Positions 1,708 through 34,582 of a DNA stretch of 34,582 bases are shown here, piece by piece (position 1 is the stretch's first letter; each line of letters opens with the position of its first letter). Both the position numbers and the translations under genes were made by a program. The stretch is taken from contig DATHRO010000085.1 of NCBI GenBank assembly GCA_035465135.1, positions 1 through 34,582 on the forward strand, given 5' to 3'. The DNA comes from Candidatus Deferrimicrobiaceae bacterium (GTDB taxonomy: Bacteria > Chloroflexota > Limnocylindria > Limnocylindrales > CSP1-4). The notes beneath the pieces are model-generated. The model had not been told where the DNA came from. It ran no database searches and worked only from the letters and a program-made list of their open reading frames with translations.

Positions 1708-1758
1708 GGCTCCGTCCCGAGTCGACGCCGGCCGAGTCAGAGCACGTCGGGCTCAGAT

Positions 1759-1782: not shown

Positions 1783-1810
1783 CACTCGGTCTCCGAAGAA
1801 AGAAGGCGTC

Positions 1811-2104: not shown

Positions 2105-2147
2105 GGATCCGGTAGCGCCCGAACCGACTCTCGGCCGCTGGCCCGGC

Positions 2148-2630: not shown

Positions 2631-2657
2631 CACCCGCTCCCGGCTCGGGCGCGCCGG

Positions 2658-3569: not shown

Positions 3570-3640
3570 GGCGCTTTCCTCCGGCGGTTTGCGCCCGAGT
3601 CTACGGACCGGACTCCCGCTTCGCGAGATCAGAGGCCGCC

Positions 3641-4348
3641 CTACGGCTGGCCCTCCAGCATCCCGAGTCGAACGGCGTACCGCATCAGTTGCGCCCGGCT
3701 GTGGAGGTTCAACTTGTCCATGATGTGGCCGCGGTGCGTCTGGACCGTGTTGATGCTCAGCTCCAGCTCGTCGGCAATCTCCTGGTTGGAACGGCCCTCG
3801 CCGATCAGCGACAGGACCTCCCGCTCGCGGGCAGTCAGCTTCTCGTAGCTGCCGCGTTCCTCGCCCGTGCTGACGCGATCGAGGTACTCCTCGACCAGCC
3901 GCTTCGCGAGCGGCGGATGGAGGTACACGCCACCGCGGTGGACCGCCCGCACGGCAGCCACCAGCTCGGTGGCGGCCGCGTCCTTGGCCAGGAAGCCGTG
4001 GGCGCCGGCCTCGAGCACGCGGAAGAAGTAGTCCTCAGTGTCGTGGACGGTGATCACGAGCACGCGGATGGCAGGGTTGGCGGCCGCGATGCGACGAGTC
4101 GCCGTGAGCCCATCGAGCTCCTTCATCCCGATGTCCATCAGGACCACGTCGGGCCGCTGCCGGAGCGCGCACTCCACGGCCTCACGCCCGGTCGATGCCT
4201 CACCGATGACCTCGCAATCGCCCTGCGACGCGAGCAGCGCCCGCAGCCCCTCCCGAACGAGCGTGTGGTCGTCGGCGATGAGCACCCGAATGCGGTTCAC
4301 GGCCTTCTCGCTCCGGCCCTCCTGCGCATCCCGGCCCACCTCAGGCAT
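3641..4348 (-). CDS. NarL/LuxR-family response regulator (REC + HTH_LuxR)
   Basis: REC domain: RVLIADDHTLVREGL...PDVVLMDIGMKELDG...VLVITVHD. C-terminal HTH: LTAREREVLSLIGEGRSNQEIADELELSINTVQTHRGHIMDKL. The start ATG overlaps the kinase stop (ATGCCTGA at 4341-4348). Confidence 0.9.
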   Translation of the reverse strand: MPEVGRDAQEGRSEKAVNRIRVLIADDHTLVREGLRALLASQGDCEVIGEASTGREAVECALRQRPDVVLMDIGMKELDGLTATRRIAAANPAIRVLVITVHDTEDYFFRVLEAGAHGFLAKDAAATELVAAVRAVHRGGVYLHPPLAKRLVEEYLDRVSTGEERGSYEKLTAREREVLSLIGEGRSNQEIADELELSINTVQTHRGHIMDKLNLHSRAQLMRYAVRLGMLEGQP

Positions 4349-6173
4349 ACGGCAGGCGGGCCCGGATCCGCGTCCCGCCGCCAGCGCGTGACTCGACCGT
4401 CAGTGTGCCCCCGAAGAGCTCGGCGCGCTCGCGCATGCCAAGCAGCCCCAGGCCGCGGCCGCTCTGGTCCGGCTCGGGCAGGGCGTCCGGCTCGAAGCCG
4501 GCTCCATCGTCTTCCACGAGCGCGACCATGTCGGAGGCCCGGAACTCGAGCCGGATCCGCACGTGACGGGCGGCAGCGTGCCTGGCCGCGTTGCTGACGG
4601 CCTCCTGGACGATGCGGAAGATTGCGGTCGCCTCCGATCCGGTCGCCCGGCGCTCGTCACCGACGACCCGGAGGGCGACATCGATGCCCAGCGGCCGCAG
4701 GTGGTCGTCGGCGTAGGCGCGGACCGCGGCCCCAAGTCCGAGGTCGTCGAGCGCGCTCGGTCGGAGATCGACGATCGCCTTGCGGATCTCACGCAGGGCC
4801 ATCTCCAACTGGGTTCGGCTCCGGACCAGCGCGGCTCGCGCCTCGATCGAGCGTTCCGGAAGGCCATCCTCGGCGGCCTTGAGGGTCATGAGCACGGCGG
4901 TGAGGGTCTGGGCCGAATCGTCGTGGAGGTCGCGGGCCAATCGCTTCCGCTCCTCCTCCTGAGCCGTGATCGTCTTGGCGAGGAGCTGGCGGCGGATGCG
5001 GTTCAGAGCATCCAGCTGGCGGTTCCGCTCCTCGGCCTCTCGCGTCCGCTCCAGGACGCGGCTCTCGAGCTCCTCCGCCCACCGGGCTCTCTCGTCGAGC
5101 GACGCCTTGAGCCTGACCCGCATGTCGTCGAAGCGCTGGCCGAGTTCGCCGATCTCGTCATCACGCGGAACGACGATGGGCTGGTCAAGCTCCCCCGAGG
5201 CCATCCGCGCTGCGTCCGTCGAGAGGCGGCGGATCGGTCGCACGACGCTGTTTGCGTGGAGCCACGCGCCGCCGCTCGCGAGCAGCAGCGCGGCGAAGCC
5301 GTAGATCAGCAGGGTCCGCTGCATGTCGCTCGGGATCGCGAGCGCCTCGTCCTCGGTCTGCTCGATGACGATCCCGCCGGGCAGCGTCGCGAAGGGATAG
5401 AAGGCGACCACGTGGTCCGAGAAGTCGTCGAAGCGGTGAATCGCGGTTCCACCCCGCGACGATGCGATCAGCGGGGCGAGGATCGCGACGTGCTCGGTCT
5501 CGGGCTCCCCGTCATGGCTGCCCGCCGCCGCGATGACGACGCCCGACGAGTCGACCACCTGTGACTGGACGGAGCTGGACGTCTCGACAACGGGCAGGAG
5601 GTGGTCGCCGAGGCGAGCCGCGAGGATCTCGCCGGCCAGGGTGCCGACCCGCTCGCCGCTGCCATCGGCGAGCGGCACCAGGACCACCACGAACGGAGGG
5701 TTGGCCAGTCCGTCCCCGGCGGGGGCGATGACGCTCGTCGACGGGCGATCCAGCGCCGCGAGCACCGCCGCGTCGGAGGCGAGCGGCCAGGGCGCCGTGG
5801 ACGAGCCGCCGGGCGCAACCCAGATGACGTGCGCGGCGGCATCGAGAGCCACGATCTGATCGAACTCGTCGATCAGCTCGAAGAGCTCATCTCCCAGCGC
5901 TGCCGCGTTCGCGTCCCCTGACTGACCGGCGATCGACGCCACGGCCTCCAGCTGTCGGGCGGCGTGGTCGACCAGGTCGTCCATCGACAGCGCCGTCAGC
6001 TGGGCCAGGCGAAGGCGCTCGTCGAGCGCAACCTGCGTGCTGAGCTCGATCGTCCTGACCACGAGCAAGCCGAAGATCGAGAAGAGCACGACCAGCCCGA
6101 TCAGGACGCCCCCGGCGATCCGGTCCCGCAAGCTCAGGCGGCGAAGCAGTCCTGCTCGAGGTCCCTCTGTCAC
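4341..6173 (-). CDS. Sensor histidine kinase: TM, ~260-aa extracytoplasmic domain, TM, HAMP, HisKA_3, HATPase_c
   Basis: Two hydrophobic segments (IAGGVLIGLVVLFSIFGLLVV and LLIYGFAALLLASGGAWL). HAMP-like RPIRRLSTDAARMASGELDQPI. H-box RLARDLHDDSAQTL (HisKA_3 type). ATPase G-boxes DDGAGF and GRGLGLLGMRERAELFGG. GTG start at 6173. Confidence 0.85.
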   Translation of the reverse strand: MTEGPRAGLLRRLSLRDRIAGGVLIGLVVLFSIFGLLVVRTIELSTQVALDERLRLAQLTALSMDDLVDHAARQLEAVASIAGQSGDANAAALGDELFELIDEFDQIVALDAAAHVIWVAPGGSSTAPWPLASDAAVLAALDRPSTSVIAPAGDGLANPPFVVVLVPLADGSGERVGTLAGEILAARLGDHLLPVVETSSSVQSQVVDSSGVVIAAAGSHDGEPETEHVAILAPLIASSRGGTAIHRFDDFSDHVVAFYPFATLPGGIVIEQTEDEALAIPSDMQRTLLIYGFAALLLASGGAWLHANSVVRPIRRLSTDAARMASGELDQPIVVPRDDEIGELGQRFDDMRVRLKASLDERARWAEELESRVLERTREAEERNRQLDALNRIRRQLLAKTITAQEEERKRLARDLHDDSAQTLTAVLMTLKAAEDGLPERSIEARAALVRSRTQLEMALREIRKAIVDLRPSALDDLGLGAAVRAYADDHLRPLGIDVALRVVGDERRATGSEATAIFRIVQEAVSNAARHAAARHVRIRLEFRASDMVALVEDDGAGFEPDALPEPDQSGRGLGLLGMRERAELFGGTLTVESRAGGGTRIRARLPYA

Positions 6174-6246
6174 GCGCGTCGCGCCCCAACGTCAGCAACC
6201 GCTCGGTTGCCGCGAGTGTGCGCGCCGGCCGCGTCCACGGACAAGT

Positions 6247-6285
6247 CTGCCCTCCCGTCGCGCCATGAATCGGACGGGAGGGCAG
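6247..6285 (-). terminator. Strong GC hairpin (13-bp perfect stem, 13-nt loop) 18 nt after the EB_dh-like gene stop; candidate intrinsic terminator or attenuator between the redox operon and the kinase gene
   Basis: CTGCCCTCCCGTC (6247-6259) and GACGGGAGGGCAG (6273-6285) are exact reverse complements. On the minus strand only a weak U-containing tail (ACUUGU) follows, as is often described for high-GC genomes. Confidence 0.45.
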
Positions 6286-6303
6286 CGAACACGGTCCCCT
6301 CGA

Positions 6304-7209
6304 CTAGTCCAGGTGGACCTCGATCCAGCCCTGGTTCGAGCTCTGGACGTGGCCGTCATCGTCCCAGCCATCCGCACCCTGGTCGGGGTCCCAGTAGGCG
6401 AGGGCCAGGTGGAGCTCCCCGCCAGCGGTGAACTGGCCATCCTGCTCGTCGCCGGTCTGAAGCGGCCGGCGGAGCTCGAAGATCCAGGTGCCCGCCGAGC
6501 CCGCGGTCGGGCTCGTGTGGTTCCAGACACCGAGAATTGAGTTCTCGGCCCCGGTGGCGTTGTCATCCTCGCGCTCGTCGGGCTTCGTCGCCCACTCGTC
6601 ATCGAGGTTGCAGGCTTCATCGTTGCCGGAACCGCTGCTGACGCCCGACGCCGCGGCGCCACCGCCGCTCTGATCGCCGGCCGCGCAGTCGAGCTCCCAG
6701 TGCCACAGGTCGACCATGCCGAGGCTGGTTTCCCGATCCGGTTCGTCGGCGCCCATGTGCTCGCCGGCTCCCGGATCGATCTCCCACATCACGGCTGCCG
6801 AGCCGGAGCGGTGCGGGTCGCCGTCGACCCAGTCGTAGTCATCCTCGACCTCGAAGAGCACGTACAGGAACTGGTCGTCGTAGGCGACCCTGATGTGCGC
6901 GTCCTTCGACTCGACCCCCTCGCCCATGATCGCCTCGAGCGTGAGATCGAGGCCCTCGATGGCCGCCCAGTCCGTGGGGTCGCCGTCAACGTCGATGGTC
7001 GCCTCGGCGGCCTCCACGATCCGAGCGTCGCCGTGCCCATCCTCGGTGGGCATCGCGGTCGGCTCGGGCGTCTCGAGGACGGTCATCTCCGGGGTCGGCT
7101 GCGGCGTCGTGACCGCCGTCGGCTCGGGTGATGCGCCGCCCGAGCAGGCCGCAGCGGCTAGCGCGAGGGCTGCTACCCAGGCGAGCAGCTTGGGTGTCGA
7201 TCTGTTCAC
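6304..7209 (-). CDS. Secreted lipoprotein with EB_dh (ethylbenzene-dehydrogenase gamma-subunit-like) / DOMON-like putative haem-binding domain
   Basis: GTG at 7209 sits 6 nt after GAGGAG. Signal peptide plus lipobox-like LALAAAACSG, then a P/T/E-rich linker. The domain pattern is DGDPTDWAAIEGL...IRVAYDDQFLYVLFEV.D...GEHMG...MVDLWHWE...LALAYWD...GWIEVHL. The longer 485-aa ORF in the track would overlap the cytochrome c gene. Confidence 0.6.
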   Translation of the reverse strand: MNRSTPKLLAWVAALALAAAACSGGASPEPTAVTTPQPTPEMTVLETPEPTAMPTEDGHGDARIVEAAEATIDVDGDPTDWAAIEGLDLTLEAIMGEGVESKDAHIRVAYDDQFLYVLFEVEDDYDWVDGDPHRSGSAAVMWEIDPGAGEHMGADEPDRETSLGMVDLWHWELDCAAGDQSGGGAAASGVSSGSGNDEACNLDDEWATKPDEREDDNATGAENSILGVWNHTSPTAGSAGTWIFELRRPLQTGDEQDGQFTAGGELHLALAYWDPDQGADGWDDDGHVQSSNQGWIEVHLD

Positions 7210-7238
7210 GTCGGTCTCCTCATGCTCCCGTCCATTGG

Positions 7239-7691
7239 TCAACCACCGGTATCGGGCCGGGCCAGTGACTCGAGGTAGCGAAAGATGGCTTCGAGGTCCT
7301 CGTCGCCTACAACCTGCGGGTCGAAGGCGGGCATGCCGCCCGGCCCGCGGCGTATGTCGCTGCGAAGGCCTCCCAGTCCGAGCTCCTCCGGGTCGAGCGC
7401 CGGCCCGACGACCCCGCCTTCGCCGCGCAGCCCATGGCAGGTGGCGCAGCCGAAGCCGAAGAACAAGAAGCGGCCCCGATTCGCCGGGTCCGCCACCGGC
7501 GCCGGTTCCGCCAGCCCGACACCGGTGAACGTGCTGTCGAGGCCGACGTACGAGATCGGCGTCCGGTCGAAGCCCTCGGGCCGGACGTTGGCGTGCGTCT
7601 CCGGGCTCCGAGCGACGATGCCCCAGATGAGGACGACCGCCAGCCCGCTGATCGTCGCGGCCAGGACCGCTGGAATGAAGTACCGGCTCAT
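7239..7691 (-). CDS. Membrane-anchored mono-haem class I cytochrome c
   Basis: N-terminal TM segment IPAVLAATISGLAVVLIWGIV. One CxxCH site (CATCH), with the downstream Met-ligand context RRGPGGMPAF. The start overlaps the upstream gene stop (ATGA at 7688-7691). Confidence 0.8.
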   Translation of the reverse strand: MSRYFIPAVLAATISGLAVVLIWGIVARSPETHANVRPEGFDRTPISYVGLDSTFTGVGLAEPAPVADPANRGRFLFFGFGCATCHGLRGEGGVVGPALDPEELGLGGLRSDIRRGPGGMPAFDPQVVGDEDLEAIFRYLESLARPDTGG

Positions 7692-8284
7692 CCGCCTCGC
7701 CTGGATGCCTCGCGGACTGGCTCGCCGCCAGCGCGCGCGATGCGAATGAGAACGACCGCAACGCCGAGGAGGATGGTCCAGACGATCGTCAGGATCGCCA
7801 TCAGCAGGCCGACGTTCAGGCCAGGGATCGACAGGCCCGGGTCGGCGATGAAGAGCTGGGCATCGCCGGCGACCTCGACCGAGATCGTGGCGATCTCAGG
7901 CTCCGACTCGTTCGGCAGGAGGTACTCCACCCGGATGTCGTGGTGGCCGGTGACGCGCGGCCGATAGGCCAGCGTCGCGACGCCGGCATCGTCGGTGACC
8001 GCGGTCGCCACCTCGACCTCGCCGGAGACGCCCGCGAACGTCGCGTCGAGGTAGAACGTCACCGGCGTGCGGGCGAGCGGCGAGCCGTCGGCCGAGCTCA
8101 GCGCGACCGGGATGTTGGTCACCGTGCCGACCTCGAGCGTGCCCGGGACGCCGATCCTGACCGTCACATGGCTGGCGCCGACGGGCCCCGCGAGGACGAG
8201 GCTCATGACGGCCAGGGCGACGGTCGTTATCGCCCATGCTGCGAGTCGCTTCGTGCCCACCATCGAACGTGTCCCTCCTGTCAT
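7688..8284 (-). CDS. Unknown exported protein: signal peptide, all-beta (Ig-like) domain, C-terminal TM anchor
   Basis: Signal peptide KRLAAWAITTVALAVMSLVLAGPVGAS followed by HVTVRIGVPG. The middle region is beta-rich with V/T alternation. C-terminal TM segment VGLLMAILTIVWTILLGVAVVLI followed by a basic tail. ATGA overlaps at both ends (8281-8284 and 7688-7691). Confidence 0.5.
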   Translation of the reverse strand: MTGGTRSMVGTKRLAAWAITTVALAVMSLVLAGPVGASHVTVRIGVPGTLEVGTVTNIPVALSSADGSPLARTPVTFYLDATFAGVSGEVEVATAVTDDAGVATLAYRPRVTGHHDIRVEYLLPNESEPEIATISVEVAGDAQLFIADPGLSIPGLNVGLLMAILTIVWTILLGVAVVLIRIARAGGEPVREASRRGG

Positions 8285-9624
8285 CCCTCTGCCGGTGATG
8301 GCGCCGGCAGCGTCTCCGGCGGCGACTCAGCGGCCTCGAAGTCCTCGGCGATCTCCCAGACGGCGAGGATCGGGAAGAGCTTGGTGAAGATCGTGATGAG
8401 GAGCGCGAACAGCGCGAGCCCAGCCGCGAGCATCGACCACTCCACCCACGTCGGGGCGTAGGCGGACGGGTCGTAGGGCATCAACGGCACGCGCAGCCCG
8501 CTGACGACGATCACGTAGCGCTCGATCCACATCGCCACCGTGACGAGGCCGGCGGCCACGATCGCGCCGCGGGCATTGCGGGTCCAGGGCAGGAGCACGG
8601 TCACGATCGGCGCGACCAGACCGCCGAGGAGGTAGAACCAGTACAGCGGGCCGAACTGGTTGAGGAAGAGTTGCCGGAAGTGGAACTCGACCCCCTCCTC
8701 CATCTTGTAGCCGTGCGTCATCAGCTCCGAGATGTTGGCGTAGAGCATGATCGCGGCGAAGGCCGCCATCAGGTAGCCGAGGTACACGAAGTGCGTGTCA
8801 GTCACGTACCTCCCGAGCCTGTAGGCGCGCCGGAGGACGGCCATCACGAGGATCAGGATCGCGATGCCGGAGAAGATCGCGCCGGCCACGAAGAAGGCGC
8901 CGAAGAGCGTGCTGTTCCACGGCACCCGGAGCGTCATCCCGAAGATCCATGAGACGACGGTGTGGACGGACACCGCGATCGGGATGATCAGGATCATCAG
9001 CACGCCGATCGCCCGGGCGAGGGAGCGCTTCTGCCCGTCGCTGCCCACCCAGCCGATGGCCAGGACGCGGTAGAGCCCGCTGCGCCAGCGCGACGACGAG
9101 CCGGCCAGCCGATCCCGGAACAACGCGAGGTCCGGGATCATCGGCACGAACAGATAGGTGATGCTCGCGGTCAGATACGTCGTGATCGCGAGGACGTCCC
9201 AGATGATCGGCGACTGCCAGCGGCCGTAGATCACGACGTTGAGCAGCCGGTCGGGACGGCCCAGATCGATGATCACGTAGGAGGCCCCGCAGACCAGGGC
9301 GACGACCGTGATGAACTCGGCCATCCTGGTCACCGGCGTCCGCCAGCGAGCGTTCGAGACACGCAGGATCGCGGAGATCAACGTTCCGGCGTGGCTGATG
9401 CCGATGAAGAACACGAAGGTGGCGATGTAGAGGCCCCAAGAAATCCGGTCGCGCATGCCGGTCACGACGAGCCCGTCACGGAGCTGGGTGAAGTACGCGT
9501 AGGCGCCCCAGGCGATGATCGCGAGCAGGATCGCGACGACCAGCCAGAAGCGGCGCGACGTCCGGCGAACCGGCGCGACCGCGGTTTCGACGAGGCGTTC
9601 GCGTTCGCGGCTCAGCGCGTCCAC
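8281..9624 (-). CDS. NrfD/PsrC-family polytopic membrane subunit (quinone-interacting)
   Basis: Multi-TM protein with the typical N-terminal FWLVVAILLAIIAWGAYAYFTQLRDGLVVTGMRDRISWGLYIATFVFFIGISHAGTLISAILRV. I chose GTG 9624 because GGAG lies 7 nt upstream. The track start (GTG 9660) has no SD and overlaps the FeS gene by 49 nt; either start is possible. Confidence 0.85.
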   Translation of the reverse strand: MDALSRERERLVETAVAPVRRTSRRFWLVVAILLAIIAWGAYAYFTQLRDGLVVTGMRDRISWGLYIATFVFFIGISHAGTLISAILRVSNARWRTPVTRMAEFITVVALVCGASYVIIDLGRPDRLLNVVIYGRWQSPIIWDVLAITTYLTASITYLFVPMIPDLALFRDRLAGSSSRWRSGLYRVLAIGWVGSDGQKRSLARAIGVLMILIIPIAVSVHTVVSWIFGMTLRVPWNSTLFGAFFVAGAIFSGIAILILVMAVLRRAYRLGRYVTDTHFVYLGYLMAAFAAIMLYANISELMTHGYKMEEGVEFHFRQLFLNQFGPLYWFYLLGGLVAPIVTVLLPWTRNARGAIVAAGLVTVAMWIERYVIVVSGLRVPLMPYDPSAYAPTWVEWSMLAAGLALFALLITIFTKLFPILAVWEIAEDFEAAESPPETLPAPSPAEG

Positions 9625-10559
9625 GGGATCGCTCCGTCGACGTCCACCTGCCACGGCCACTCGGTCGGCAGGCGCCCGGCTGCATAGACGTCTCGACCGA
9701 CGGCCTCGCCATGACCCGCGATGTAGTAGACGCGCGGGTTCGTGCCCAGGTCGCTCTTCAGCTGGTAGGCCTGGTTGTCGGACATGAACCGCGAGGCCGA
9801 AACGACGACCTCGCCGTTCGTCGCCAGATCCTCTTCAAGATCGCCGTACAAGATCGCGCCGTGGGGGCAGCCCTGGACGCAGTACGGCAGCGTCGCCGCT
9901 CGGGCCATGTCAGGGCAGAAGTCGCATTTCATCACCGTCCCCCGCTTCGCCGGGACCTGGTGCTCGGCGGAGTACTCGGCGAGGCCGGCCTCCTCCGGGA
10001 TCGGGGGGTCGCCCCAGTTGAAGAAGCGGCGGTCGTAGGGGCAGGCGGCCATGCAGATTCGGCAACCGATGCAGCGCTCCTGGTCGATCAGCACGGTGCC
10101 CTCCGGCGCGGAGAACGTCGCCCCGACGGGGCAGACGTTGACGCACGGCGGGTTCTGGCACTGCTGGCAGGGCGTCGGGATGAACTGCGTGCCGCCACCG
10201 GGCAGCTCGGACTCGAAGACCTGGATCCACTCCATCGGCTCGGGCGCGAAGTGGCCCTCGATGCAGGCGGCGGTGCATCGAGGCGCGGAGCCGACGCTCT
10301 GGCAACCGTCGCACAGCCGGAGGTCGATGATCATCGTCCACTGGCGGACCCGGCCGTCCGGAGTCAGCGCCGGCTGCTGACCCGGAGGTATCGCCGCTCT
10401 CTCGCTCGTCAGCGATTCCAGAACCCGCGGGAGGACCGGCACGGGCGCCAGGGAGGCGGCACCAAGACCGATGACGCGGAGCATCGTGCGGCGCCCGATC
10501 GTCGGACCGGACTGCGGCGTCGCCTGGGCTGTCGCCTCTTCTGGCCGGAATCGTGGCAT
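9612..10559 (-). CDS. Tat-exported 4x[4Fe-4S] ferredoxin-type subunit (NrfC/PsrB/DmsB/ActB2-like)
   Basis: ATG 10559 follows GAAGG. The twin-arginine signal IGRRTMLRVIGLGAASLA lies at residues ~21-38. Four Cys groups: CDGCQS...C...C, CQQCQNPPC...CP, CIGCRIC..ACP, CDFC...C..CP. Confidence 0.85.
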   Translation of the reverse strand: MPRFRPEEATAQATPQSGPTIGRRTMLRVIGLGAASLAPVPVLPRVLESLTSERAAIPPGQQPALTPDGRVRQWTMIIDLRLCDGCQSVGSAPRCTAACIEGHFAPEPMEWIQVFESELPGGGTQFIPTPCQQCQNPPCVNVCPVGATFSAPEGTVLIDQERCIGCRICMAACPYDRRFFNWGDPPIPEEAGLAEYSAEHQVPAKRGTVMKCDFCPDMARAATLPYCVQGCPHGAILYGDLEEDLATNGEVVVSASRFMSDNQAYQLKSDLGTNPRVYYIAGHGEAVGRDVYAAGRLPTEWPWQVDVDGAIPWTR

Positions 10560-10614
10560 GCGCACCTTCGCTGCGAGCCTTCGCCCGCCCATCGTCGCGG
10601 CGGAGCGTCGGCCT

Positions 10615-10673
10615 ACGCATCCCCCGAGGAGGTCATGCGTCGATCGGACTTCGGCGAAACGCACTAGTGCGTT
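10615..10673. promoter_or_regulatory. Two inverted-repeat operator candidates sharing an ACGCA(Y) half-site in the divergent FeS-operon/DinB promoter region
   Basis: There is a perfect 16-bp palindrome AACGCACTAGTGCGTT at 10658-10673. ACGCAT (10615-10620)-N14-ATGCGT (10635-10640) forms a second inverted repeat. The palindrome is 99 nt upstream of the FeS-gene ATG and 81 nt upstream of the DinB ATG. Confidence 0.5.
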
Positions 10674-16965: not shown

Positions 16966-18216
16966 ATGTCGCAGCGCCATCGATCCGGCCTGCCCTTCGC
17001 GATGGCCGTCGTCCTCGCGCTCGCGGCACTGCCGTTCCTCGCCAGCCGGCCCGCCGCGGCGGCGGGGACCGACCATGTCACGAACTGCCGGATCAACCTC
17101 CGAGGCGGACCCTCGACCTCGACCGCGCTCGTCGCCACGCTGCCGAAGGACAGCGTGGTGTCGGTCTCCGCAACCGTGAGCGGCGGAGCCTGGACGACGC
17201 ACTGCGGCACGAGCGTCGCGGGGGCGACGTGGTTCAAGGTCGTCGCGATCGACGGCCGCAGCGTCGCGTCGCGCTACGGGACCAGCATCCTCTACGCGGC
17301 CACGGGCCTGTTCCACCCAGCCCCAGCGCCGACGCCGGATTACCGGTCGAACTGTGGCGTCAACCTTCGGGCCACGGCCTCGACCGGCGCATGGATCAGG
17401 GGCGTCGTGGCCAGGAATGCCGTCGTGACCGCGGCGGCGACCGTCAGCGGCGGGCGCTGGCGAGCCGACTGCGGCAGGAGCGTCAGCGGCAGTCGCTGGC
17501 TCAAGATCGTCGCGATCAATGGCCGCAGCGTGCATTCGCTGTACGGCGTGAGCGCCGTCTACGCCGCACGGGGTCTCTTCACGTCCATCCCGCTGACCGG
17601 CTACCTCGAGGGGATCGACGTCTCCAACTGGCAGGGCCGGATCGACTGGGCCCGGGTCAGGGCCGCCGGCGTGCGCTTCGCAATCGCCAAGGCGAGTGAG
17701 GGGGTCGGCTACGAGGACCGGAGCTACGACCGTAACCGGGCCGGCGCGCTGGCCCAGGGCATCGCGTTCGGGGCGTACCACTTCGCCCGGCCGGAGAACA
17801 ACCCGATCAAGGAGGCCGACTGGTTCATCGAGGTCGCGAGCTACCGGCGCGGCATGATCATCCCGACGCTCGATCTCGAGCGAACCGGGGGCCGGAACCC
17901 GACGGGCCTGGCGAACTGGACGAAGGCCTGGCTGACGCGGGTCCACGAGCGGCTTGGCGTGCGGGCCATGATCTACGTCAGCCCGTCGTTCTGGCGCCAG
18001 AATCTTGTCAACACCGAGTGGTTCGCCCGGCACGGCTACCACGTCGTCTGGATCGCCCACTGGCGCGCCACGAACCCGAAGGTGCCGGCCTCGAGCTGGA
18101 ACGGCCGGTCGTGGACCTTCTGGCAGTACTCGACCACCGGCAGCGTGCCGGGCATCTCCGGCCCCGTCGATCTGAACCGCTACCGCTACGCCGGGCTCGC
18201 CGCCGTTCTCTACTGA
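16966..18216 (+). CDS. GH25 muramidase (lysozyme) with two N-terminal SH3b-like repeats
   Basis: Signal peptide with AAA cleavage site. The catalytic domain shows GIDVSNWQG.IDW..V...GV.FAIAKASEG..Y.D, AYHFARP and WTFWQYS..G.VPGI.G.VDLN. Confidence 0.8.
   Translation: MSQRHRSGLPFAMAVVLALAALPFLASRPAAAAGTDHVTNCRINLRGGPSTSTALVATLPKDSVVSVSATVSGGAWTTHCGTSVAGATWFKVVAIDGRSVASRYGTSILYAATGLFHPAPAPTPDYRSNCGVNLRATASTGAWIRGVVARNAVVTAAATVSGGRWRADCGRSVSGSRWLKIVAINGRSVHSLYGVSAVYAARGLFTSIPLTGYLEGIDVSNWQGRIDWARVRAAGVRFAIAKASEGVGYEDRSYDRNRAGALAQGIAFGAYHFARPENNPIKEADWFIEVASYRRGMIIPTLDLERTGGRNPTGLANWTKAWLTRVHERLGVRAMIYVSPSFWRQNLVNTEWFARHGYHVVWIAHWRATNPKVPASSWNGRSWTFWQYSTTGSVPGISGPVDLNRYRYAGLAAVLY
17083..17580 (+). 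repeat. Intragenic tandem duplication: two 77-aa modules (each with two Cys) in the GH25 N-terminus
   Basis: By hand alignment, NCRINLRGGPSTS...GGAWTTHCGTSVAGATWFKVVAIDGRSV...YAATGLF and NCGVNLRATASTG...GGRWRADCGRSVSGSRWLKIVAINGRSV...YAARGLF are identical at about half of the aligned positions. Confidence 0.6.
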
Positions 18217-28516: not shown

Positions 28517-30271
28517 TTGGACGATCAGTCGGATCTCCGCGACCTGCGCCGCCTGAAGCGGATCGGCATCATCGCGCCGATCGTGTTCCTCGCGGCCTTC
28601 GAGCTGTGCCGCGTCGCCCTGATCGACACCTCGTTCGAGGCGCCGCACTCGAACCTGATCGCGGCCGGCCTGGGGGTGACGGCGGCGCTCGCATTCGGGC
28701 TCGCCGTCTTCGTGTACCTCGAGCGGGCGCAGCAGAGCGTGATCCGGCGCAACCGGGACCTTGCCTACGTCGACGGCGTCGCGAGCGCGATCCAGGGCGA
28801 CATCGACGTCGACGGCGTCGTGCGCCACGCGCTCGAGGCGATCGTTCGCTTGACCGGTGCCAGCGAGGCCCGGGCGACGATTCAGCCGCTCGACGCCGAC
28901 GCCGGCCCGGCCCACGAGGTCGTGGTGGCCGACCCGGCTGGCGGCGGTGACGCGCTGGCCGTCCCGGATCACCTCGTTGACCTGCCACTTTCGACCAGCG
29001 CCGCACCGATCGGCTGCGTCAGCATCCGGATCCCGTCATCGAAGATTGCGACCCTGCCGAGCTCGGAGGCGCTGTCGACGGCCGCCCACCAGATGGCGGC
29101 CGCGGTCCAGATCGCCCTGCTCGTGAGCGACATGCAGCGCCGCAAGACCGAAGGCCACACGCTCTACCAGGTGCTCCTGCAGATCTCGAACCACGTCCCC
29201 GTGACCGAGACGCTGGGTGCGATCGTCGCGGGTGCTCGCGAGCGCCTGGACGCGGACGAGGGGCGCCTGTGCCTGACGCCGACGACGCTGGCGGCGTTCG
29301 ACGCCGACGCCGAGCTCTCCGCGGAACTCGAGGACGGCCTCAGCTGTGGCGCCCCGGTCGAGGGCGAGCGGCCACCGCCGAACGCGCCCGCCCGCCACCA
29401 TCGCTGCCCGATCGGAGACGAGTCAGGCTATGGGGCGACGCTCAAGGCCGCGATCTGGGCGCCCGGCGAGCTGCTCGGCGAGCTGTGGATCGCGAGGGCG
29501 CGGGAGGAGCCGTTCTCGGAGCGCGACCGCCGCTATCTCGTCACGCTCGCCGGGATCGCCGCGATCGCGATCAGCGGCGCTCGTCTCCGGGAGCGGGATC
29601 GGCAGTCCGCGATCCTCGCCGAGCGCGACCGGATTGCCCGCGAGCTGCACGACAGCCTGGCCCAGGTCCTGGGCAGCACCCACCTCCGGCTGCGGACCCT
29701 CCTGGCTCGGCCGGAGGTCGCCGAGCGTGGACGCATCAGCGGCGAGCTGGAGGACCTCGCGACCGTCAACGAGGAGGCCTACCACGACGTCCGTGAGGCG
29801 ATCCTCGGGCTTCGCGAAGCCAGCCGAACGCAGGGCCTCATCGAGGCGCTGGGCGCCTACGTCGACAAGTACGCCCAGCAGTCCGGGTTGCCCGTCGAGC
29901 TCGAATCGACGATCGACGGCGAACCGGCCCTCTCGGCGGCCAGCGAGATCCAGGTCATCCGGGTCATCCAGGAAGCACTGACCAACGTCCGCAAGCACGC
30001 CCGGGCGACGAAGGCGTGCGTCCGGATCGCGTCGGCCGAGCCGGGCACGATGACGATCGTCGTCGAGGACGACGGTCGCGGCTTCGACCCGTCAGCGGCA
30101 CCGAGCCACCGTGACGGCGGCTACGGTCTCCAGACGATGCGCGAGCGCATGCAGCTCGCCGGCGGCAGCCTCCGGATCGACTCTCGGCCGGGCCAGGGGA
30201 CGCGGGTCATCGCGGTCGTCCCCGACGGCTCGCGGCCGCGCGGCAACCGCCTCGTGGCAGCACCGAACTGA
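28517..30271 (+). CDS. Sensor histidine kinase: 2 TM, GAF-like region(s), HisKA_3, HATPase_c
   Basis: TTG start follows GAGAAGGGA. TM segments IGIIAPIVFLAAFELCRVALI and LIAAGLGVTAALAFGLAVFVYL are separated by a ~10-aa loop. H-box RIARELHDSLAQVL. ATPase motifs NVRKHA, DDGRGF and GYGLQTMRERMQLAGG. Confidence 0.8.
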   Translation: MDDQSDLRDLRRLKRIGIIAPIVFLAAFELCRVALIDTSFEAPHSNLIAAGLGVTAALAFGLAVFVYLERAQQSVIRRNRDLAYVDGVASAIQGDIDVDGVVRHALEAIVRLTGASEARATIQPLDADAGPAHEVVVADPAGGGDALAVPDHLVDLPLSTSAAPIGCVSIRIPSSKIATLPSSEALSTAAHQMAAAVQIALLVSDMQRRKTEGHTLYQVLLQISNHVPVTETLGAIVAGARERLDADEGRLCLTPTTLAAFDADAELSAELEDGLSCGAPVEGERPPPNAPARHHRCPIGDESGYGATLKAAIWAPGELLGELWIARAREEPFSERDRRYLVTLAGIAAIAISGARLRERDRQSAILAERDRIARELHDSLAQVLGSTHLRLRTLLARPEVAERGRISGELEDLATVNEEAYHDVREAILGLREASRTQGLIEALGAYVDKYAQQSGLPVELESTIDGEPALSAASEIQVIRVIQEALTNVRKHARATKACVRIASAEPGTMTIVVEDDGRGFDPSAAPSHRDGGYGLQTMRERMQLAGGSLRIDSRPGQGTRVIAVVPDGSRPRGNRLVAAPN

Positions 30272-31023: not shown

Positions 31024-31078
31024 CCGCCTGCCTGTGCCCTCCAGCGGATTTACGCGAGATCGGCAGGCGGCTAGTTTT
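31024..31078 (+). terminator. Candidate terminator or structured spacer after the response-regulator gene
   Basis: CCGCCTGCC (31024-31032) pairs perfectly with GGCAGGCGG (31062-31070), followed by CTAGTTTTC. The 29-nt loop is large for an intrinsic terminator. Confidence 0.3.
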
Positions 31079-31108
31079 CGCTGCGACGTCCACCACTGGA
31101 GGCGGTCG

Positions 31109-31513
31109 GTGCCAGGCGATTCCCAACGGGTCGTGATCCTGTACGCCCATCCGCTGCTGGGCGAGGGGCTCGCGCGGATGCTCGGCGAGGACCCTCGCCT
31201 CGTCGTGACGGCTGTCCACGTCGAGGACCTCGAGTCCGCCAAGGCGGTGCTCCGCGACGCACCCGACGTCGTGGTGGTGGAACGGGCCGCTTCGATGCAC
31301 GCCATCGACCTCCTGGCGCTCGCCCCGTCCGCGCTGCTCATCGACGTCGGGCTGGACGCCGGACCGAGCTGGGCGTACCACCGCGACGAGATCTCCCCGC
31401 AGCCGGACGAGATCCTGCACACCATCCGGCGCTGCACGGCCGCGGGGAACCCGTCGGTCGTCCGTCGCCGCCGGCCGGGTCAACCCCACCGAACTGCCCC
31501 GGCGCCTTCCTGA
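31109..31513 (+). CDS. Stand-alone degenerate receiver-like (pseudo-REC) protein
   Basis: GTG 31109 lies 7 nt after GGAGG. VVILYAHPLLGEGLARMLGEDPRLVVTAV....ESAKAVLRDAPDVVVVERAA mirrors the REC layout of the neighbouring regulator (ILLVDDQPLFRRAI...PDVVLLDVEMP). The acidic pair is YA and the phospho-acceptor position is Glu. GC3 is high, and there is no output domain. Confidence 0.45.
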   Translation: MPGDSQRVVILYAHPLLGEGLARMLGEDPRLVVTAVHVEDLESAKAVLRDAPDVVVVERAASMHAIDLLALAPSALLIDVGLDAGPSWAYHRDEISPQPDEILHTIRRCTAAGNPSVVRRRRPGQPHRTAPAPS

Positions 31514-31584
31514 CCGCACCAGCGGCGGCCGATTCCTTATCCGAGCGATAGAGGAGCGCGTCCATCGGCGCGTCGCGCTCGCTG

Positions 31585-31602
31585 TACCCGTTTTCTACCC
31601 CC
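31585..31602 (+). promoter_or_regulatory. Two direct TACCC-type heptamers one helical turn apart (TACCCGT-N4-TACCCCC); candidate NarL-family binding site
   Basis: The motifs start at 31585 and 31596 (11 nt start-to-start), about 135-148 nt upstream of the TPR gene ATG. Each differs at one position from the E. coli NarL heptamer consensus TACYYMT. Confidence 0.3.
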
Positions 31603-31651
31603 CGGCGGATGGGAAGTCCGCGCCGCACCCGTCACGATCAACGGTGGACGG

Positions 31652-31693
31652 CTCCGCCCCGGGGCTCTCTTCCCTTCTCGCCCCGGGACGGGG
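31652..31693 (+). promoter_or_regulatory. Leader hairpin whose pyrimidine loop carries an anti-SD sequence complementary to the TPR-gene ribosome-binding site
   Basis: The core stem is CCCGGGGC (31658-31665) paired with GCCCCGGG (31680-31687). It is extendable to 31652/31693 with one mismatch. The loop is UCUCUUCCCUUCUC. CCUUCUCG (31673-31680) is the exact complement of CGAGAAGG (31719-31726), which is the SD of the ATG at 31733. Confidence 0.4.
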
Positions 31694-31732
31694 TCCGCCC
31701 ACGCAACTCGAACCAGCACGAGAAGGAAACGT

Positions 31733-32692
31733 ATGAAGACCCTCGACGTCGTCCGGCGGACGTCAGACGAAGACCTGTCGCGATGGATCAGGCGGCTGTC
31801 GCTGATCCTCGTCCTCGGCGTGCTCGCCTTCGGGGTGTTTTACGCGGTCGACCGCTGGCGGCCGGCCGCGCCGGCGATCGTGGATCAGCAGATCGCATCC
31901 CTCGAGCAGGCGGTTCGCGACAACCCCAACGACATCTCCATCCGCGGCAGCCTGGCGGATGCCTACGCCGCCAAGGGCCGCTTCGAGGACGCGCTCGGCC
32001 AGTACGACGTGATCATCGCCGCGGGCGTCAGCCTGGAGCCGGCCAACCTCGGCCGGGCCCGCGCGCTGCAGGCCCTCGGGCGACTCGACGAGGCCGCCGC
32101 GGCGTTCGAGGCGGTCGTCGCGATCGCCAAGGACGGCGAGATGGCTCATGTCGACATGGGCCTCCAGGCCGCCTACTACGGCCTCGGCTTCATCGCCAGA
32201 GAGCAGGGTCGCCCGGCCGACGCGATCGGCCATCTCGAGCGGGCCCTCGCGATCAGCCGCTCCGACGCCGACTCGCTGTACCTGATCGGCACCGCGTTCG
32301 TGGCGACGGGCGAGTACGAGAAGGCCATCACCGTCCTCCGTGCGTCGGTGACGTTCGTGCCGGTCGGCTGGGACGAGCCGTATGCGGCGCTGGCCGAGGC
32401 CTACGAGGCCAGCGGCCAGCCGGCGATGGTCGCCTGGGCGAACGCGATGGCCGGGCTGATGGCCGGGGACGCCGAGGCCGCCGAGCCGGCCCTGCTCGAG
32501 CTCGTCGACGGCGAGGCCGCGCTCGACGCGGCGATCGGCCTGGGCCTGCTGTTCGAGACGCGCGGCGACAACGCGCAGGCGGCCGAGTGGTACCAGCGCG
32601 CGCTGGCGATCGAGCCGACCAGCAACGCGGCGGGCCTGGGGCTGGGCCGGGTCGGGCCAATCCCGACGACCGGCGTGGAGAGCGGGTCGTGA
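31733..32692 (+). CDS. Membrane-anchored TPR-repeat protein
   Basis: The ATG follows GAGAAGGAAACGT. N-terminal TM segment LSLILVLGVLAFGVFYAV. Several TPR-like units follow (LADAYAAKGRFEDALGQYDVII, ARALQALGRLDEAAAAFEAVV, LGFIAREQGRPADAIGHLERAL, GTAFVATGEYEKAITVLRASV, LLFETRGDNAQAAEWYQRALAIEP). Confidence 0.75.
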   Translation: MKTLDVVRRTSDEDLSRWIRRLSLILVLGVLAFGVFYAVDRWRPAAPAIVDQQIASLEQAVRDNPNDISIRGSLADAYAAKGRFEDALGQYDVIIAAGVSLEPANLGRARALQALGRLDEAAAAFEAVVAIAKDGEMAHVDMGLQAAYYGLGFIAREQGRPADAIGHLERALAISRSDADSLYLIGTAFVATGEYEKAITVLRASVTFVPVGWDEPYAALAEAYEASGQPAMVAWANAMAGLMAGDAEAAEPALLELVDGEAALDAAIGLGLLFETRGDNAQAAEWYQRALAIEPTSNAAGLGLGRVGPIPTTGVESGS

Positions 32693-33741
32693 CCGGCCTG
32701 GCGGCGAGCCCCGAGCAGGGCGTCAACCCCGGCGTCGGGGACCAGGGCGAGGACCTCGGGCCCACGCGTGAGGAGCGCGAGCGGCGACGACGCTGGCTGC
32801 TCCTGCTCCTGCTGTTCGTCTTCCTGCTGATCCTCATCGGCCTTGCGATCTGGTACTTCCTGTTCCGCCAGCCGATCCCGCTGCCACCGCCGATCCAGAT
32901 CGACCTTCCGGGCTATACGACGAGCTTCTACGGCGCCAACAACCCGGTCGGCATCGCTGTCAGCCCGGACGGCAGCCGGGTTTACGTCGCCCAGACAGAA
33001 GGCGACCGCGGCGTCCTCGTGTTCGACGGCGCGGGCAACGTCATCTCCGTTGCGGTCCCGCCGGCCTCGACCGGCGCCGACCACGTGCCGGTCTGGCTCG
33101 CGATCGACCCGATCTCGTCAGAGCTGTACGTGTCCGACCGGCCGATGGGCACAATCTACGTCTACGACCGCGACGGGCAGTTCGCCCGGGAGGTCGTTCT
33201 TGCAAGCGATCTCCCCGGCTGGCAGCCGATGGGTCTGGCGTTCGATGCCGCGGGCAACCTCTACGTCAGCGACTTCGGCGGTGCCGCGCCGCGGGTCGAG
33301 ATGTTCGACCGGACGCTGGCGCTCGTCCGGACGTTCGGCGAGGGCGACCGCCTGGCATTCCCGAATGGCGTCGCCGTGGACGAGCTGGGCAACGTCTTCG
33401 TCGCCGACAGCAACAACGGCCGCCTGCTGGTGTACGGCCCGGACGGGACGCGGCTGGCCGAGGTCGGCCGCGGCACCGGCAAGGGCGAGCTGGCGCTCCC
33501 GCGCGGGCTCGCCGTGGATGGTCGGAGCCGGATCTACATCGGCGACTCGACCGGCCAGGGCGTCCTCGTGTACCGCCTCACCGAGGGTGCCAGCCCAGCC
33601 CTCGAATACCTCGGCTTCTTCGGCGGTGAGGGCATCGCCGACGGCCGCTTCAGCTTCCCCAACGGCGTGGCGGCCGACGGCCGCGGCCGGATCTACGTCA
33701 GCGACACCAACAACGATCGCGTTCAGATGTGGAGCTATTGA
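32689..33741 (+). CDS. Membrane-anchored NHL-repeat beta-propeller protein
   Basis: The GTG start overlaps the TPR stop (GTGA at 32689-32692). TM segment WLLLLLLFVFLLILIGLAIWYFLF. NHL-type blades repeat: PVGIAVSPDGSRVYVA, LAIDPISSELYVSD, PMGLAFDAAGNLYVSD, PNGVAVDELGNVFVADSNNGRLLVY, PRGLAVDGRSRIYIGD and PNGVAADGRGRIYVSDTNNDRVQMW. Confidence 0.8.
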   Translation: MTGLAASPEQGVNPGVGDQGEDLGPTREERERRRRWLLLLLLFVFLLILIGLAIWYFLFRQPIPLPPPIQIDLPGYTTSFYGANNPVGIAVSPDGSRVYVAQTEGDRGVLVFDGAGNVISVAVPPASTGADHVPVWLAIDPISSELYVSDRPMGTIYVYDRDGQFAREVVLASDLPGWQPMGLAFDAAGNLYVSDFGGAAPRVEMFDRTLALVRTFGEGDRLAFPNGVAVDELGNVFVADSNNGRLLVYGPDGTRLAEVGRGTGKGELALPRGLAVDGRSRIYIGDSTGQGVLVYRLTEGASPALEYLGFFGGEGIADGRFSFPNGVAADGRGRIYVSDTNNDRVQMWSY

Positions 33742-33842
33742 TGGAAAGCGTCCCAGAGGAGGTGCAGCCGAGTGACGTGCTTGCCGCCGGACAGGCGGCT
33801 CCAACCGCCAACCCCTATCGCAACAGACAGGAGGTGGGAACA

Positions 33843-34582
33843 GTGAGACGACTGGCCCTGCTGTTCGCAGGGGCCACACTCTGGCTGTTCCTCGCCGCGT
33901 TCCCTGTGTTTGCGGATGGTGGGGTCCACGTGGCCGGCAACAACTCGGGGCTCAGCACCCTGACGGCCGACAGCTGCGCGGGCTGCCACCGTGCCCACAC
34001 GGCACAGGGCGAGTACCTGATCAACTCAACCTCGACCGAGGGCCTGTGCCTGACGTGCCACGGCGCGTCGAGCGTCGGCTCCGCAGTCGACGTCAAGACC
34101 GGTATCCAGTACGAGGTCGGGACAACCGACCCGCGAGGCGACGTCATCCTCGGCGCGCTGCGCGGCGGCGGCTTCGACCAGGCCAGGATCGACGCCGGGG
34201 TCGTGACCCGGCTGTCCTACCTGCGCAACGCCACTGCCGTCTCGCAGCGGCCTCGCGTAGGTGTAGGCGCCGCCGAGGACGTCAACTCGGCGCACATCGC
34301 GATGACAGAGAACGGCCTCACCAACCCGGGCGTCGCCTGGGGCAACGGGGCCGTCGGGACCGGGGCCGGCCCATCCGTGACGGTGACGTGCACCTCGTGC
34401 CACAACCCGCACGGCAATGGTCAGTATCGGATCCTGAAGCCGTTCCCTGAGGACCACGACGCGGTCATCGACAACGCCTGGGTCGTCAACATCATCGCCG
34501 CGGACGCGACGAGCGATCGGATCTACACCGACGTTTCGCACGGCCTTCTTGACGGTGACGTCGTCGACATCACGGGCCCGGG
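33843..34582 (+). CDS. Secreted multihaem c-type cytochrome (CxxCHxxH paired-CXXCH style), 3' end outside window; not in the supplied ORF track
   Basis: My own translation of this frame from 33843 is MRRLALLFAGATLWLFLAAFPVFADGGVHVAGNN...SCAGCHRAHT...GLCLTCHGAS...VTCTSCHNPHGNGQYRILKPF... There is no stop up to nt 34582. GTG 33843 is preceded by AGGAGGTGGGAACA. Haem motifs lie at 33975-33989, 34047-34061 and 34389-34403. The frame is also open back to ATG 33741, which overlaps the NHL stop. Confidence 0.8.
   Translation, partial: MRRLALLFAGATLWLFLAAFPVFADGGVHVAGNNSGLSTLTADSCAGCHRAHTAQGEYLINSTSTEGLCLTCHGASSVGSAVDVKTGIQYEVGTTDPRGDVILGALRGGGFDQARIDAGVVTRLSYLRNATAVSQRPRVGVGAAEDVNSAHIAMTENGLTNPGVAWGNGAVGTGAGPSVTVTCTSCHNPHGNGQYRILKPFPEDHDAVIDNAWVVNIIAADATSDRIYTDVSHGLLDGDVVDITGP

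Follow-up and report, generated by a model that had tools for sequence, protein, structure and literature searches.

A conserved, uncharacterised TPR-NHL-multihaem cytochrome locus of Chloroflexota at the 3' end of a stretch of Limnocylindrales DNA

Closest described systems

The DNA analysed here is a stretch of 34,582 nucleotides (the window; contig DATHRO010000085.1 of assembly GCA_035465135.1, Limnocylindrales, Chloroflexota in GTDB), at whose 3' end genes for a TPR protein, an NHL beta-propeller protein and a multihaem c-type cytochrome (Cyt1) follow one another on the forward strand. This end of the window is the regulatory head, together with the first three structural genes, of a conserved and uncharacterised Chloroflexota locus. 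By composition, the closest described system is the uet cluster of 'Ca. Tenderia electrophaga' (Tenderiales), which comprises two NHL genes, multihaem cytochromes, a cupredoxin, CcsAB and a TPR protein resembling NrfG, and for which extracellular electron exchange has been proposed (10.1101/2022.05.06.490989). By envelope logic, the closest is the extracellular electron transfer (EET) system of the monoderm Thermincola, formed by ImdcA, PdcA, CwcA and OcwA, with a membrane decahaem cytochrome, a hexahaem cytochrome of the wall and a surface cytochrome; CwcA has been modelled on OmcS at 18% identity (PMC7911101). NHL-repeat genes are also present in the multihaem clusters DFE_448-451 and DFE_461-465 of Desulfovibrio ferrophilus, where the NHL protein was proposed to stabilise the cytochrome complex (PMC5815863), and Gmet_0556 is a further example of an NHL protein with multihaem cytochromes. 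Within the Chloroflexota, ARMA_0580 of Ardenticatena maritima 110S (7 CxxCH motifs, 74 kDa) is found on the cell surface of an EET-capable monoderm (PMC5808234). A Chloroflexi supergroup survey took account only of proteins having more than 20 haems and contains no description of the locus. Nothing specific was found in the literature on this cluster in Chloroflexota or Limnocylindria, nor on the 'Mn-Chloroflexi-1' metagenome-assembled genome (MAG), which carries the closest full-length relative of Cyt1.

The locus shares with uet its NHL, multihaem, cupredoxin, System II and TPR ingredients. The uet cluster, however, belongs to diderm Gammaproteobacteria and includes the outer-membrane beta-barrel UetC, a peptidyl-prolyl isomerase and trihaem c7 proteins, whereas the locus, likened to it by composition, has hexahaem, 7+1-haem and NapC/NirT-type decahaem cytochromes, an N-terminally anchored TPR-NHL pair and a built-in two-component system; no porin and no c7-size cytochrome is found in any of the 13 related loci described below. 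With Thermincola the locus shares the logic of a cell without an outer membrane, in which a decahaem protein is associated with the membrane, a hexahaem protein (~400 aa) is proposed to bridge the wall and the surface carries a larger cytochrome, but the Thermincola genes, to which it is likened by description, are not described with TPR, NHL or Ccs partners, and the paper makes no mention of NHL (PMC7911101). As in D. ferrophilus and at Gmet_0556, an NHL propeller is encoded with extracytoplasmic multihaem cytochromes, which in those known systems are co-expressed with it; those systems are diderm and located at the outer membrane, while the propeller of the locus is anchored in the cytoplasmic membrane and its gene is invariably accompanied by a TPR gene that overlaps it. 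ARMA_0580, from the same phylum and with 7 CxxCH motifs like Cyt3 of the related loci, may correspond to Cyt3, going by its description.

An earlier, sequence-only reading of the window had stated that NHL and TPR genes are annotated next to multihaem cytochrome clusters, and the Tenderiales, D. ferrophilus and Gmet_0556 examples bear this out. It had also put the genes forward as a candidate for a novel system. The gene families are indeed uncharacterised, but the claim was overstated, since clusters similar in composition have already been described in other phyla, Proteobacteria among them, and the locus is not a new category.

Gene order and content of the locus

The related loci were gathered in two independent ways, through the NHL protein in the genomes of GTDB species and by exact look-ups of cytochrome homologues on long contigs. 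Whether reached through the one protein or the other, 13 loci (L001-L010 and L071-L073) have one gene order. The head consists of a GAF-HisKA_3 kinase, a NarL-type regulator, a small protein, sometimes a Rieske protein, the TPR protein, the NHL protein and the hexahaem Cyt1; the middle of a hexahaem paralogue (Cyt2, in some loci), Cyt3, in some loci a PCYCGC/CYCXC protein, and a second TPR protein; and the end of CcdA, ResB, CcsA, a ResA-like thioredoxin and a NapC/NirT/NrfH-type decahaem cytochrome. The locus measures ~17 kb and has 13-15 genes. Its hosts are labelled Chloroflexota (Limnocylindrales, "Chloroflexi", Anaerolineaceae), mostly MAGs of the Limnocylindria/Ellin6529 type, and two MAGs are labelled Actinomycetota. 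An exact-sequence look-up of the NHL protein of the window gave no record. The genes beyond the window end are inferred from these relatives, not read from the window's own contig, and the full-length Cyt1, Cyt2, Cyt3, the Ccs genes and the decahaem cytochrome are described from the related loci (L numbers).

Multihaem open reading frames (ORFs) are present in all 13 related loci that extend past the NHL gene; L006 stops at the NHL gene. As a control, 58 loci with only distant NHL homologues were inspected, and in none of them is there an ORF with at least 4 haems within 10 kb, with the exception of L012. A general association of NHL proteins with multihaem cytochromes was ruled out by this control, the association being confined to this orthologous NHL subfamily. 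The TPR-NHL-cytochrome triad seen in the window recurs in the same order in the 13 loci. Neither of the outcomes that the sequence-only reading had named as refuting a system, a short, conventional cytochrome of a known respiratory complex and a lack of co-occurrence in relatives, was seen: the orthologue in L003 is a hexahaem protein of 515 aa, followed by two more multihaem cytochromes and the System II genes, with no Nrf or Hao operon.

In the relatives, Cyt1 and Cyt2 have 6 haems each, Cyt3 has 7+1 and the NapC/NirT-type protein has 10. Cyt3 (632-829 aa) carries 7 CxxCH motifs and one Cx3-4CH, behind a large N-terminal non-haem domain and a Pro/Thr-rich linker, and hhalign shows the haem domain of Cyt3 to be paralogous to Cyt1 (probability 98.4%, 336 columns). 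The decahaem cytochrome is ~560-590 aa long, has one transmembrane (TM) helix and matches the NrfH model with E=1.9e-13. The maturation genes encode DsbD_TM (CcdA), ResB, Cytochrom_C_asm and, in the position of ResA, a thioredoxin-type protein (AhpC-TSA/Redoxin). The second TPR protein of L002 carries an amicyanin-like cupredoxin domain. In L001 and L005 a decahaem gene lies just upstream of the locus (in L001 after Rieske and cytochrome b genes), and in L072 a Rieske gene comes after the locus. Gene order, domain content, anchors, haem counts, co-occurrence and the dedicated System II genes are established properties of the locus.

The ORF listing and translation give three consecutive forward-strand genes at the 3' end of the window. 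The TPR protein is composed of a short charged N-terminus, one hydrophobic helix and the TPR motifs, which are recognised by TPR_2 (E=6.6e-24) and many other TPR models of Pfam. Its orthologues are 36-76% identical and in the related loci always lie directly upstream of the NHL gene. The NHL protein has an N-terminal tail ending in RRRR, a TM helix and a six-bladed NHL beta-propeller (PF01436, E=6.2e-25, 86.4 bits with a cut-off of 20). Its AlphaFold2 (AF2) model, from 39 orthologues, has a pLDDT of 89.8 and shows a helix at residues 27-59, then the six-bladed propeller. The top Foldseek matches of this model are the NHL domains of Thin, TRIM2/3/71 and Brat and the extracellular sensor of PknD (best E=5.9e-19, TM score ~0.8 on the target). 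Homologues of the NHL protein number 1559 at E<=1e-10, the best 120 being 55-95% identical.

The TPR stop and the GTG start of the NHL gene share letters in GTGA at 32689-32692, and this overlap is kept in the window, L001 (8852/8852), L002 (8813/8813), L003, L072 (8811/8811) and L073. At the second junction the window has TGATG at 33739-33743, and from 33741 onward the cytochrome frame meets no stop before the window ends. The motif AGGAGG at 33829-33834 lies 8 nt before GTG 33843, and GAAAGGAGGTGRGGACA is kept in the relatives before the same V/L/M-RRL cytochrome start. Across the spacer, only the window and its closest relative, L003, keep the frame open; in-frame stops occur in L001, L002, L072 and L073. 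The 100 nt that follow TGATG very probably do not code for protein and, because of these stops and the conserved Shine-Dalgarno sequence, the junction is best described as a 101-nt non-coding spacer within the operon, with no fusion or overlap; a cytochrome start at ATG 33741, overlapping the NHL stop, was ruled out on the same two grounds. A scan for promoters and terminators found no terminator-like site, so the three genes still look operonic, and the sole promoter-like match (9/12, 34468-34495) lies inside the cytochrome gene.

The sequence-only reading had these genes consecutive, with GTGA and TGATG exactly where they are, and linked by no real spacer, which is true of the TPR/NHL overlap and of the frame open from 33741 but not of the NHL-cytochrome junction. 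It also had all three products facing outward. For the NHL protein, a cytoplasmic tail and an extracytoplasmic propeller are strongly supported by the RRRR before the helix and by the AF2 model. Export of Cyt1 to an extracytoplasmic location is supported by its predicted signal peptide (…FLAAFPVFA, followed by DGGVH…). The TPR protein is probably N-in/C-out, the charge balance across its helix being ~+2 against 0 by our own count.

The 246 residues of Cyt1 encoded in the window hold haem motifs 1-3 (CAGCH-RAH, CLTCH and CTSCH-NPH), and the window ends at the start of an inserted beta-rich domain. The fragment contains a doubled-CXXCH domain (Paired_CXXCH_1, PF09699, 43.9 bits with a cut-off of 20.6 in Pfam; TIGR01905, 40.7 with 25.2 in NCBIfam). 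It stays below the NCBIfam cut-offs of DmsE (34.5/192 bits), NrfH (19.7/134) and OmcA/MtrC (22.1/209), and NrfA and Hao give no match. The full-length Cyt1, Cyt2 and Cyt3 of L003 likewise reach the cut-off of no curated NCBIfam multihaem model (Nrf, Hao, Otr, Mcc, Tor, Mtr, OmcA). Judged by these models, no curated family beyond the paired-CXXCH domain fits Cyt1.

With the fragment as query, 1129 proteins were retrieved at E<=0.001. The top ones share 50-72% identity with it, have a typical length of 400-430 aa, come from Chloroflexota or Ca. Limnocylindrales and, where named, are called just "cytochrome c3 family" or "predicted CXXCH cytochrome". The closest full-length orthologue, in L003 (MAG "Chloroflexi bacterium MnB_4 Mn-Chloroflexi-1"), is 79% identical over the fragment, 515 aa long, and has 6 haems and an inserted beta-rich segment. 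The full-length orthologues P0001, P0045 and L003 have 6 CxxCH motifs and no C-terminal anchor. In an alignment of 57 members, six invariant or near-invariant CxxCH motifs are accompanied by six further conserved His residues (H29, H52, H152, H193, H343 and H358 in P0001), which fits six bis-His electron-transfer haems, and the mature N-terminus D-G-G-x-H is invariant. A profile of the family, searched against 1.84 billion representatives at 50% identity, matched 1978 proteins at E<=1e-3 and 393 at E<=1e-30, many of them in 2-4 stretches, that is, with variable insertions. A phmmer search of the Protein Data Bank (PDB) with the Cyt1 sequence gave no significant match. The AF2 model of Cyt1 has a pLDDT of 74.1 and a pTM of 0.76, with low confidence in the N-terminal region; Foldseek with this model against the PDB gave a best E of 5.4, with no cytochrome and no match to 6EF8, but the model, apo and rich in coil, is a weak probe.

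Upstream of the TPR gene, the kinase, the regulator and the pseudo-receiver lie where the sequence-only reading had placed them, and they are kept in the related loci. The kinase is the first gene of the locus in L001-L010, L072 and L073. Its best NCBIfam matches are partial ones to NarQ/NarX (NarQ 124 bits with a cut-off of 553). The regulator, 49-91% identical across the related loci, matches Response_reg (E=4.8e-28) and GerE (E=2.3e-19) in Pfam, and its score with the NarL model of NCBIfam is 197.8 bits with a cut-off of 250. From its domains and these scores, the pair is of the NarX/NarL class and is not NarXL itself. The small protein, whose gene comes after that of the regulator and before that of the TPR protein in 9 of 10 loci, matches the first half of the regulator's own receiver domain (BLASTP, E=1e-4), with the receiver DD pair replaced by YA and the phospho-acceptor Asp aligned with Glu. 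This alignment, with the loss of the acidic residues, supports the label of pseudo-receiver. Its top PDB match is weak (a LuxR-family receiver, E=0.37), and no Pfam family matches it.

Between the small protein and TPR genes lies a conserved non-coding block (31541-31700) built of CGAGCGATAGAG, then TGTACCCGTTTTCTACCCCCCGGCGGATGGGAAG and finally a GC hairpin whose CU-rich loop (TCTCTTCCCTTCTC) is conserved. The element TGTACCCGnTTTCTACCnCCCGGCGGATGGGAA contains two TACCC half-sites 11 nt, or one helical turn, apart (TACCC-N6-TACCC; the TGTACCC-N6-CTACC block spans 31582-31616). The block is invariant in the window, L003, L004 and L006 while its flanks diverge, and it occurs once in the window with 0.07 occurrences expected. 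It is a candidate promoter/operator, bound by the regulator, together with a leader RNA.

Proposed role and alternative explanations

Our preferred explanation, to which we give about an even chance, is that the locus encodes a regulated extracytoplasmic multihaem chain, fed by quinol and equipped with its own cytochrome c maturation, in which the TPR and NHL proteins serve as anchored assembly or tethering factors. As far as the gene content tells, the chain of haem proteins probably moves respiratory electrons across the cell envelope. The GAF kinase and the NarL-type regulator, modulated by the pseudo-receiver, would switch on the operon upon a redox-related cue, the regulator probably acting through the TACCC-N6-TACCC block upstream of the TPR gene. 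The apocytochromes would be exported by Sec and receive their haem from the CcdA/ResA/ResB-CcsA proteins of the locus. TPR and NHL, coupled in translation and fixed by membrane anchors so that their domains face outward, would act as a chaperone or scaffold that captures and tethers the anchor-less hexahaem cytochrome(s). The monoderm setting is taken from what is known of Chloroflexota, not from the window; in a cell without an outer membrane, Cyt1, which has no anchor, would be retained by the TPR-NHL pair. NapC/NirT-type proteins usually oxidise quinol, and menaquinol electrons would leave through the NapC/NirT-type decahaem protein or, in some relatives, through a Rieske/cytochrome b/decahaem complex, the Rieske and cupredoxin modules of the relatives hinting at a high-potential branch. 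From there the electrons would pass to Cyt1 (and Cyt2) and on to the 7+1-haem Cyt3, likely the distal redox partner at the cell surface. Electrons could flow outward, with Fe(III), Mn(IV) or humics being reduced, or could be taken up from donors such as Fe(II) or Mn(II).

Several observations weigh against this explanation. The window itself holds just three structural genes of the locus and three haem motifs, and the sequence names no substrate and gives no sign of surface exposure. The outward face of the TPR domain is weakly predicted. On the TPR protein the TPR_CcmH_CycH model (PF23914) scores 20.4 bits with a cut-off of 42, and since only generic TPR models pass, a role as apocytochrome chaperone would be an analogy drawn from architecture. 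Apart from its neighbourhood, the NHL propeller shows nothing that links it to cytochromes. The relatives' Rieske and cupredoxin modules are as compatible with a high-potential, possibly O2-linked chain as with EET, and the Ccs genes in the locus fit a general locus of cytochrome biogenesis or respiration instead of a dedicated conduit. The molybdoenzyme context of the Cyt1 homologue in L012 means, in addition, that the cytochrome family is not specific to one pathway.

This last context, a molybdopterin oxidoreductase beside the hexahaem homologue, also speaks for a system acting on a soluble substrate, in which Cyt3 would be the enzyme acting on an N-, S- or metalloid oxyanion in solution, with the hexahaem proteins as electron shuttles from the NapC/NirT-type quinol dehydrogenase and with TPR and NHL as maturation factors. 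The locus does end in a NapC/NirT/NrfH-type membrane cytochrome, the usual partner of periplasmic reductases, its regulators are NarX/NarL-like, octahaem cytochrome families include enzymes, and formate dehydrogenase-like genes and FdhD flank L002, L072 and L073. We nevertheless judge a soluble substrate unlikely: no cytochrome of the locus reaches the equivalog cut-off of NrfA, Hao, Otr, Mcc or TorC, the haem domain of Cyt3 is merely a paralogue of an electron-transfer hexahaem protein, and all the haems of Cyt1 look bis-His, which leaves no evident free coordination site. A housekeeping function is in our view quite unlikely. In that case the Ccs genes would be the general System II of the cell, the cytochromes would be carriers between a bc- or ACIII-type complex and terminal oxidases, and TPR and NHL would be general helpers. 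It would explain why CcdA-ResB-CcsA-ResA lie inside the locus, why a Rieske/cytochrome b/decahaem complex adjoins it in L001 and a Rieske gene follows it in L072, and why b6f-like Rieske and amicyanin-like cupredoxin modules occur in the relatives; Limnocylindria are, moreover, described mainly as aerobes. Yet at least 29 haems in four large secreted or anchored proteins go far beyond the need for carriers, the locus is conserved together with redox-type regulators of its own (GAF kinase, NarL regulator, pseudo-receiver), and no oxidase gene lies within 10 kb of any locus.

A remaining alternative is a wire: Cyt1 would polymerise head to tail, a haem in each subunit being ligated by a His from its neighbour, and span the monoderm wall on a membrane base or assembly factor formed by TPR-NHL. 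Cyt1 would then be the Chloroflexota counterpart of OmcS and CwcA, polymerising through its DGG-x-H N-terminus or the His of CxxCHxxH, with TPR and NHL as basal assembly or anchoring factors; in either form we consider it very unlikely. The resemblance in design to OmcS of Geobacter sulfurreducens (6EF8), with three paired-CXXCH modules, is real: OmcS is of the same size class and haem number (407 aa, 6 haems, hence 6 haems in ~400 residues), both proteins have CxxCHxxH at alternate haems (haems 1, 3 and 5 in Cyt1, haems 3 and 5 in OmcS and presumably also its haem 1), and CxSCHxPHG and WCxxCH follow in the same order. Both proteins are secreted, lack an anchor and have NHL and TPR genes as neighbours. 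The mature N-terminus of Cyt1 is invariant (DGG-P-H) and lies in a region of low AF2 confidence, and CwcA of Thermincola was modelled in the same way (PMC7911101). In a PDB search with the Cyt1 family profile OmcS is the second-best match (E=0.018, three collinear stretches over haems 2, 3-4 and 5), but it is outscored by chain 6r2q_A, labelled cystathionine beta-synthase in the table; we take 6R2Q to be the MtrCAB complex and its chain A to be MtrA. The hhalign probability against OmcS-like fragments is 92-95%, with the confident columns limited to the CxSCHxPHG and WCxxCH motifs, and unrelated decahaem families used as controls reach 46-53%, which indicates that haem motifs alone inflate such scores. 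Of 60 column-shuffled nulls with the motifs fixed, 5-6 reach the real score (50.3; null mean 38.6, sd 6.1), and the similarity is therefore not significant beyond the haem motifs; as most of the signal disappears under this null, membership of Cyt1 in the OmcS family is not claimed. The spacing of haems 4 and 5 also differs (~41 residues in Cyt1, ~89 in OmcS), and the Foldseek search with the Cyt1 model gave no fold match to any cytochrome. The comparison set consisted of 7 partial OmcS-like proteins, fetched with a 118-aa fragment of G. sulfurreducens OmcS from a collection of 5.8 billion proteins; this fragment did not retrieve OmcS itself or its known full-length relatives, so that a lack of OmcS-like matches there should not be over-read. 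On these comparisons, OmcS homology and polymerisation of Cyt1 are unproven.

Limnocylindria/Ellin6529-type Chloroflexota are abundant in soils and sediments and have few or no cultured members, and their respiration is inferred from genomes. Under the preferred explanation of a regulated, quinol-fed chain, a conserved and separately regulated locus with at least 29 haems and its own maturation suggests that electrons are exchanged with a partner beyond the membrane. Should this partner prove to be Fe, Mn or humic material, the locus could be used as a marker for redox cycling by this lineage. The TPR-NHL pair, coupled and porin-free, offers a compact test bed for the roles of NHL and TPR proteins in multihaem systems (Geobacter, Desulfovibrio, Tenderiales, Gallionellaceae). 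Were Cyt1 to form a wire, the NHL and TPR genes beside multihaem clusters in many phyla would gain a defined role.

Variants of the locus and other features of the window

The related loci differ in some details. The PCYCGC/CYCXC protein (PF13798, E=1.9e-21; NF041379), with an N-terminal anchor, is encoded after Cyt3 and before the second TPR protein in L003 (10826-11386) and L004 (9674-10228), the two closest relatives, and in no other locus. In L071, from a long-read MAG, the TPR, NHL and first cytochrome genes are fragmented at 5467-9469 (135, 88, 109, 165 and 76 aa), with a transposase and a PIN gene upstream, reflecting either decay of the head of the locus or uncorrected long-read frameshifts. 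In L002, L072 and L073 the locus is situated between NAD-linked formate-dehydrogenase-like genes (2Fe-2S/51K/NADH_4Fe-4S and a NuoG-like Fer2_4/Molybdop_Fe4S4 protein) and fdhD, and looks as if it were inserted into, or working with, a formate dehydrogenase region. The window differs from these three in that its kinase gene is preceded by PntAB, a putative lipoprotein of 293 aa without a family and a YbaK-like editing protein. L012, from an uncultured member of the Eubacteriales, carries at 132-8897 a hexahaem homologue that is 26-29% identical and has the same N-terminal His and motifs; it comes after a molybdopterin oxidoreductase of very large size, which has an inserted domain, and a 4Fe-4S protein with a TM anchor, and an NHL propeller with a C-terminal anchor is encoded nearby.

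The coordinates of the features in the window are collected in the table. The G+C content is ~71% across the whole window, and Rfam gave no RNA family anywhere in it.

Table. Position, strand and main characteristics of the features described in the window.
Feature	Position	Strand	Remarks
Sensor histidine kinase	28517-30271	+	2 N-terminal TM helices, GAF, HisKA_3, HATPase_c (Pfam)
NarL/LuxR-type response regulator, receiver and GerE helix-turn-helix	30273-30965	+	likely start ATG 30273
Small receiver-like protein (pseudo-receiver)	31034-31513	+	exact start uncertain
Conserved non-coding leader/promoter block (candidate)	31541-31700	+	
TPR protein, 319 aa, bitopic membrane	31733-32692	+	~6-7 TPR motifs
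NHL propeller protein, 350 aa, bitopic membrane	32689-33741	+	NHL (Pfam)
Non-coding spacer with conserved Shine-Dalgarno	33742-33842	+	AGGAGG at 33829-33834
Cyt1, secreted hexahaem c-type cytochrome, 5' part, 246 codons	33843-34582	+	cut by window end
4Fe-4S NrfC-like protein	9612-10664	-	
NrfD	8281-9660	-	
Ig-like protein, 197 aa	7688-8284	-	
Monohaem class I cytochrome c	~7239-7691	-	CATCH
Ethylbenzene-dehydrogenase-gamma/DOMON-like haem-b domain protein	6304-7761	-	
GH25 muramidase with SH3 domain	16966-18216	+	large cell-wall hydrolase
Amidase_2 protein, 837 aa	18954-21467	-	Big_12 and fn3 domains, large cell-wall hydrolase

A second extracytoplasmic redox module is encoded on the reverse strand at 6304-10664 and, from its domain content, looks like an ACIII/Nrf-like quinol module; its regulators, a HAMP-HisKA_3 kinase and a NarL-type regulator, are found on the same strand at 3641-6173. 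Elsewhere in the window, a GT2 glycosyltransferase gene lies between the GH25 muramidase and Amidase_2 genes.

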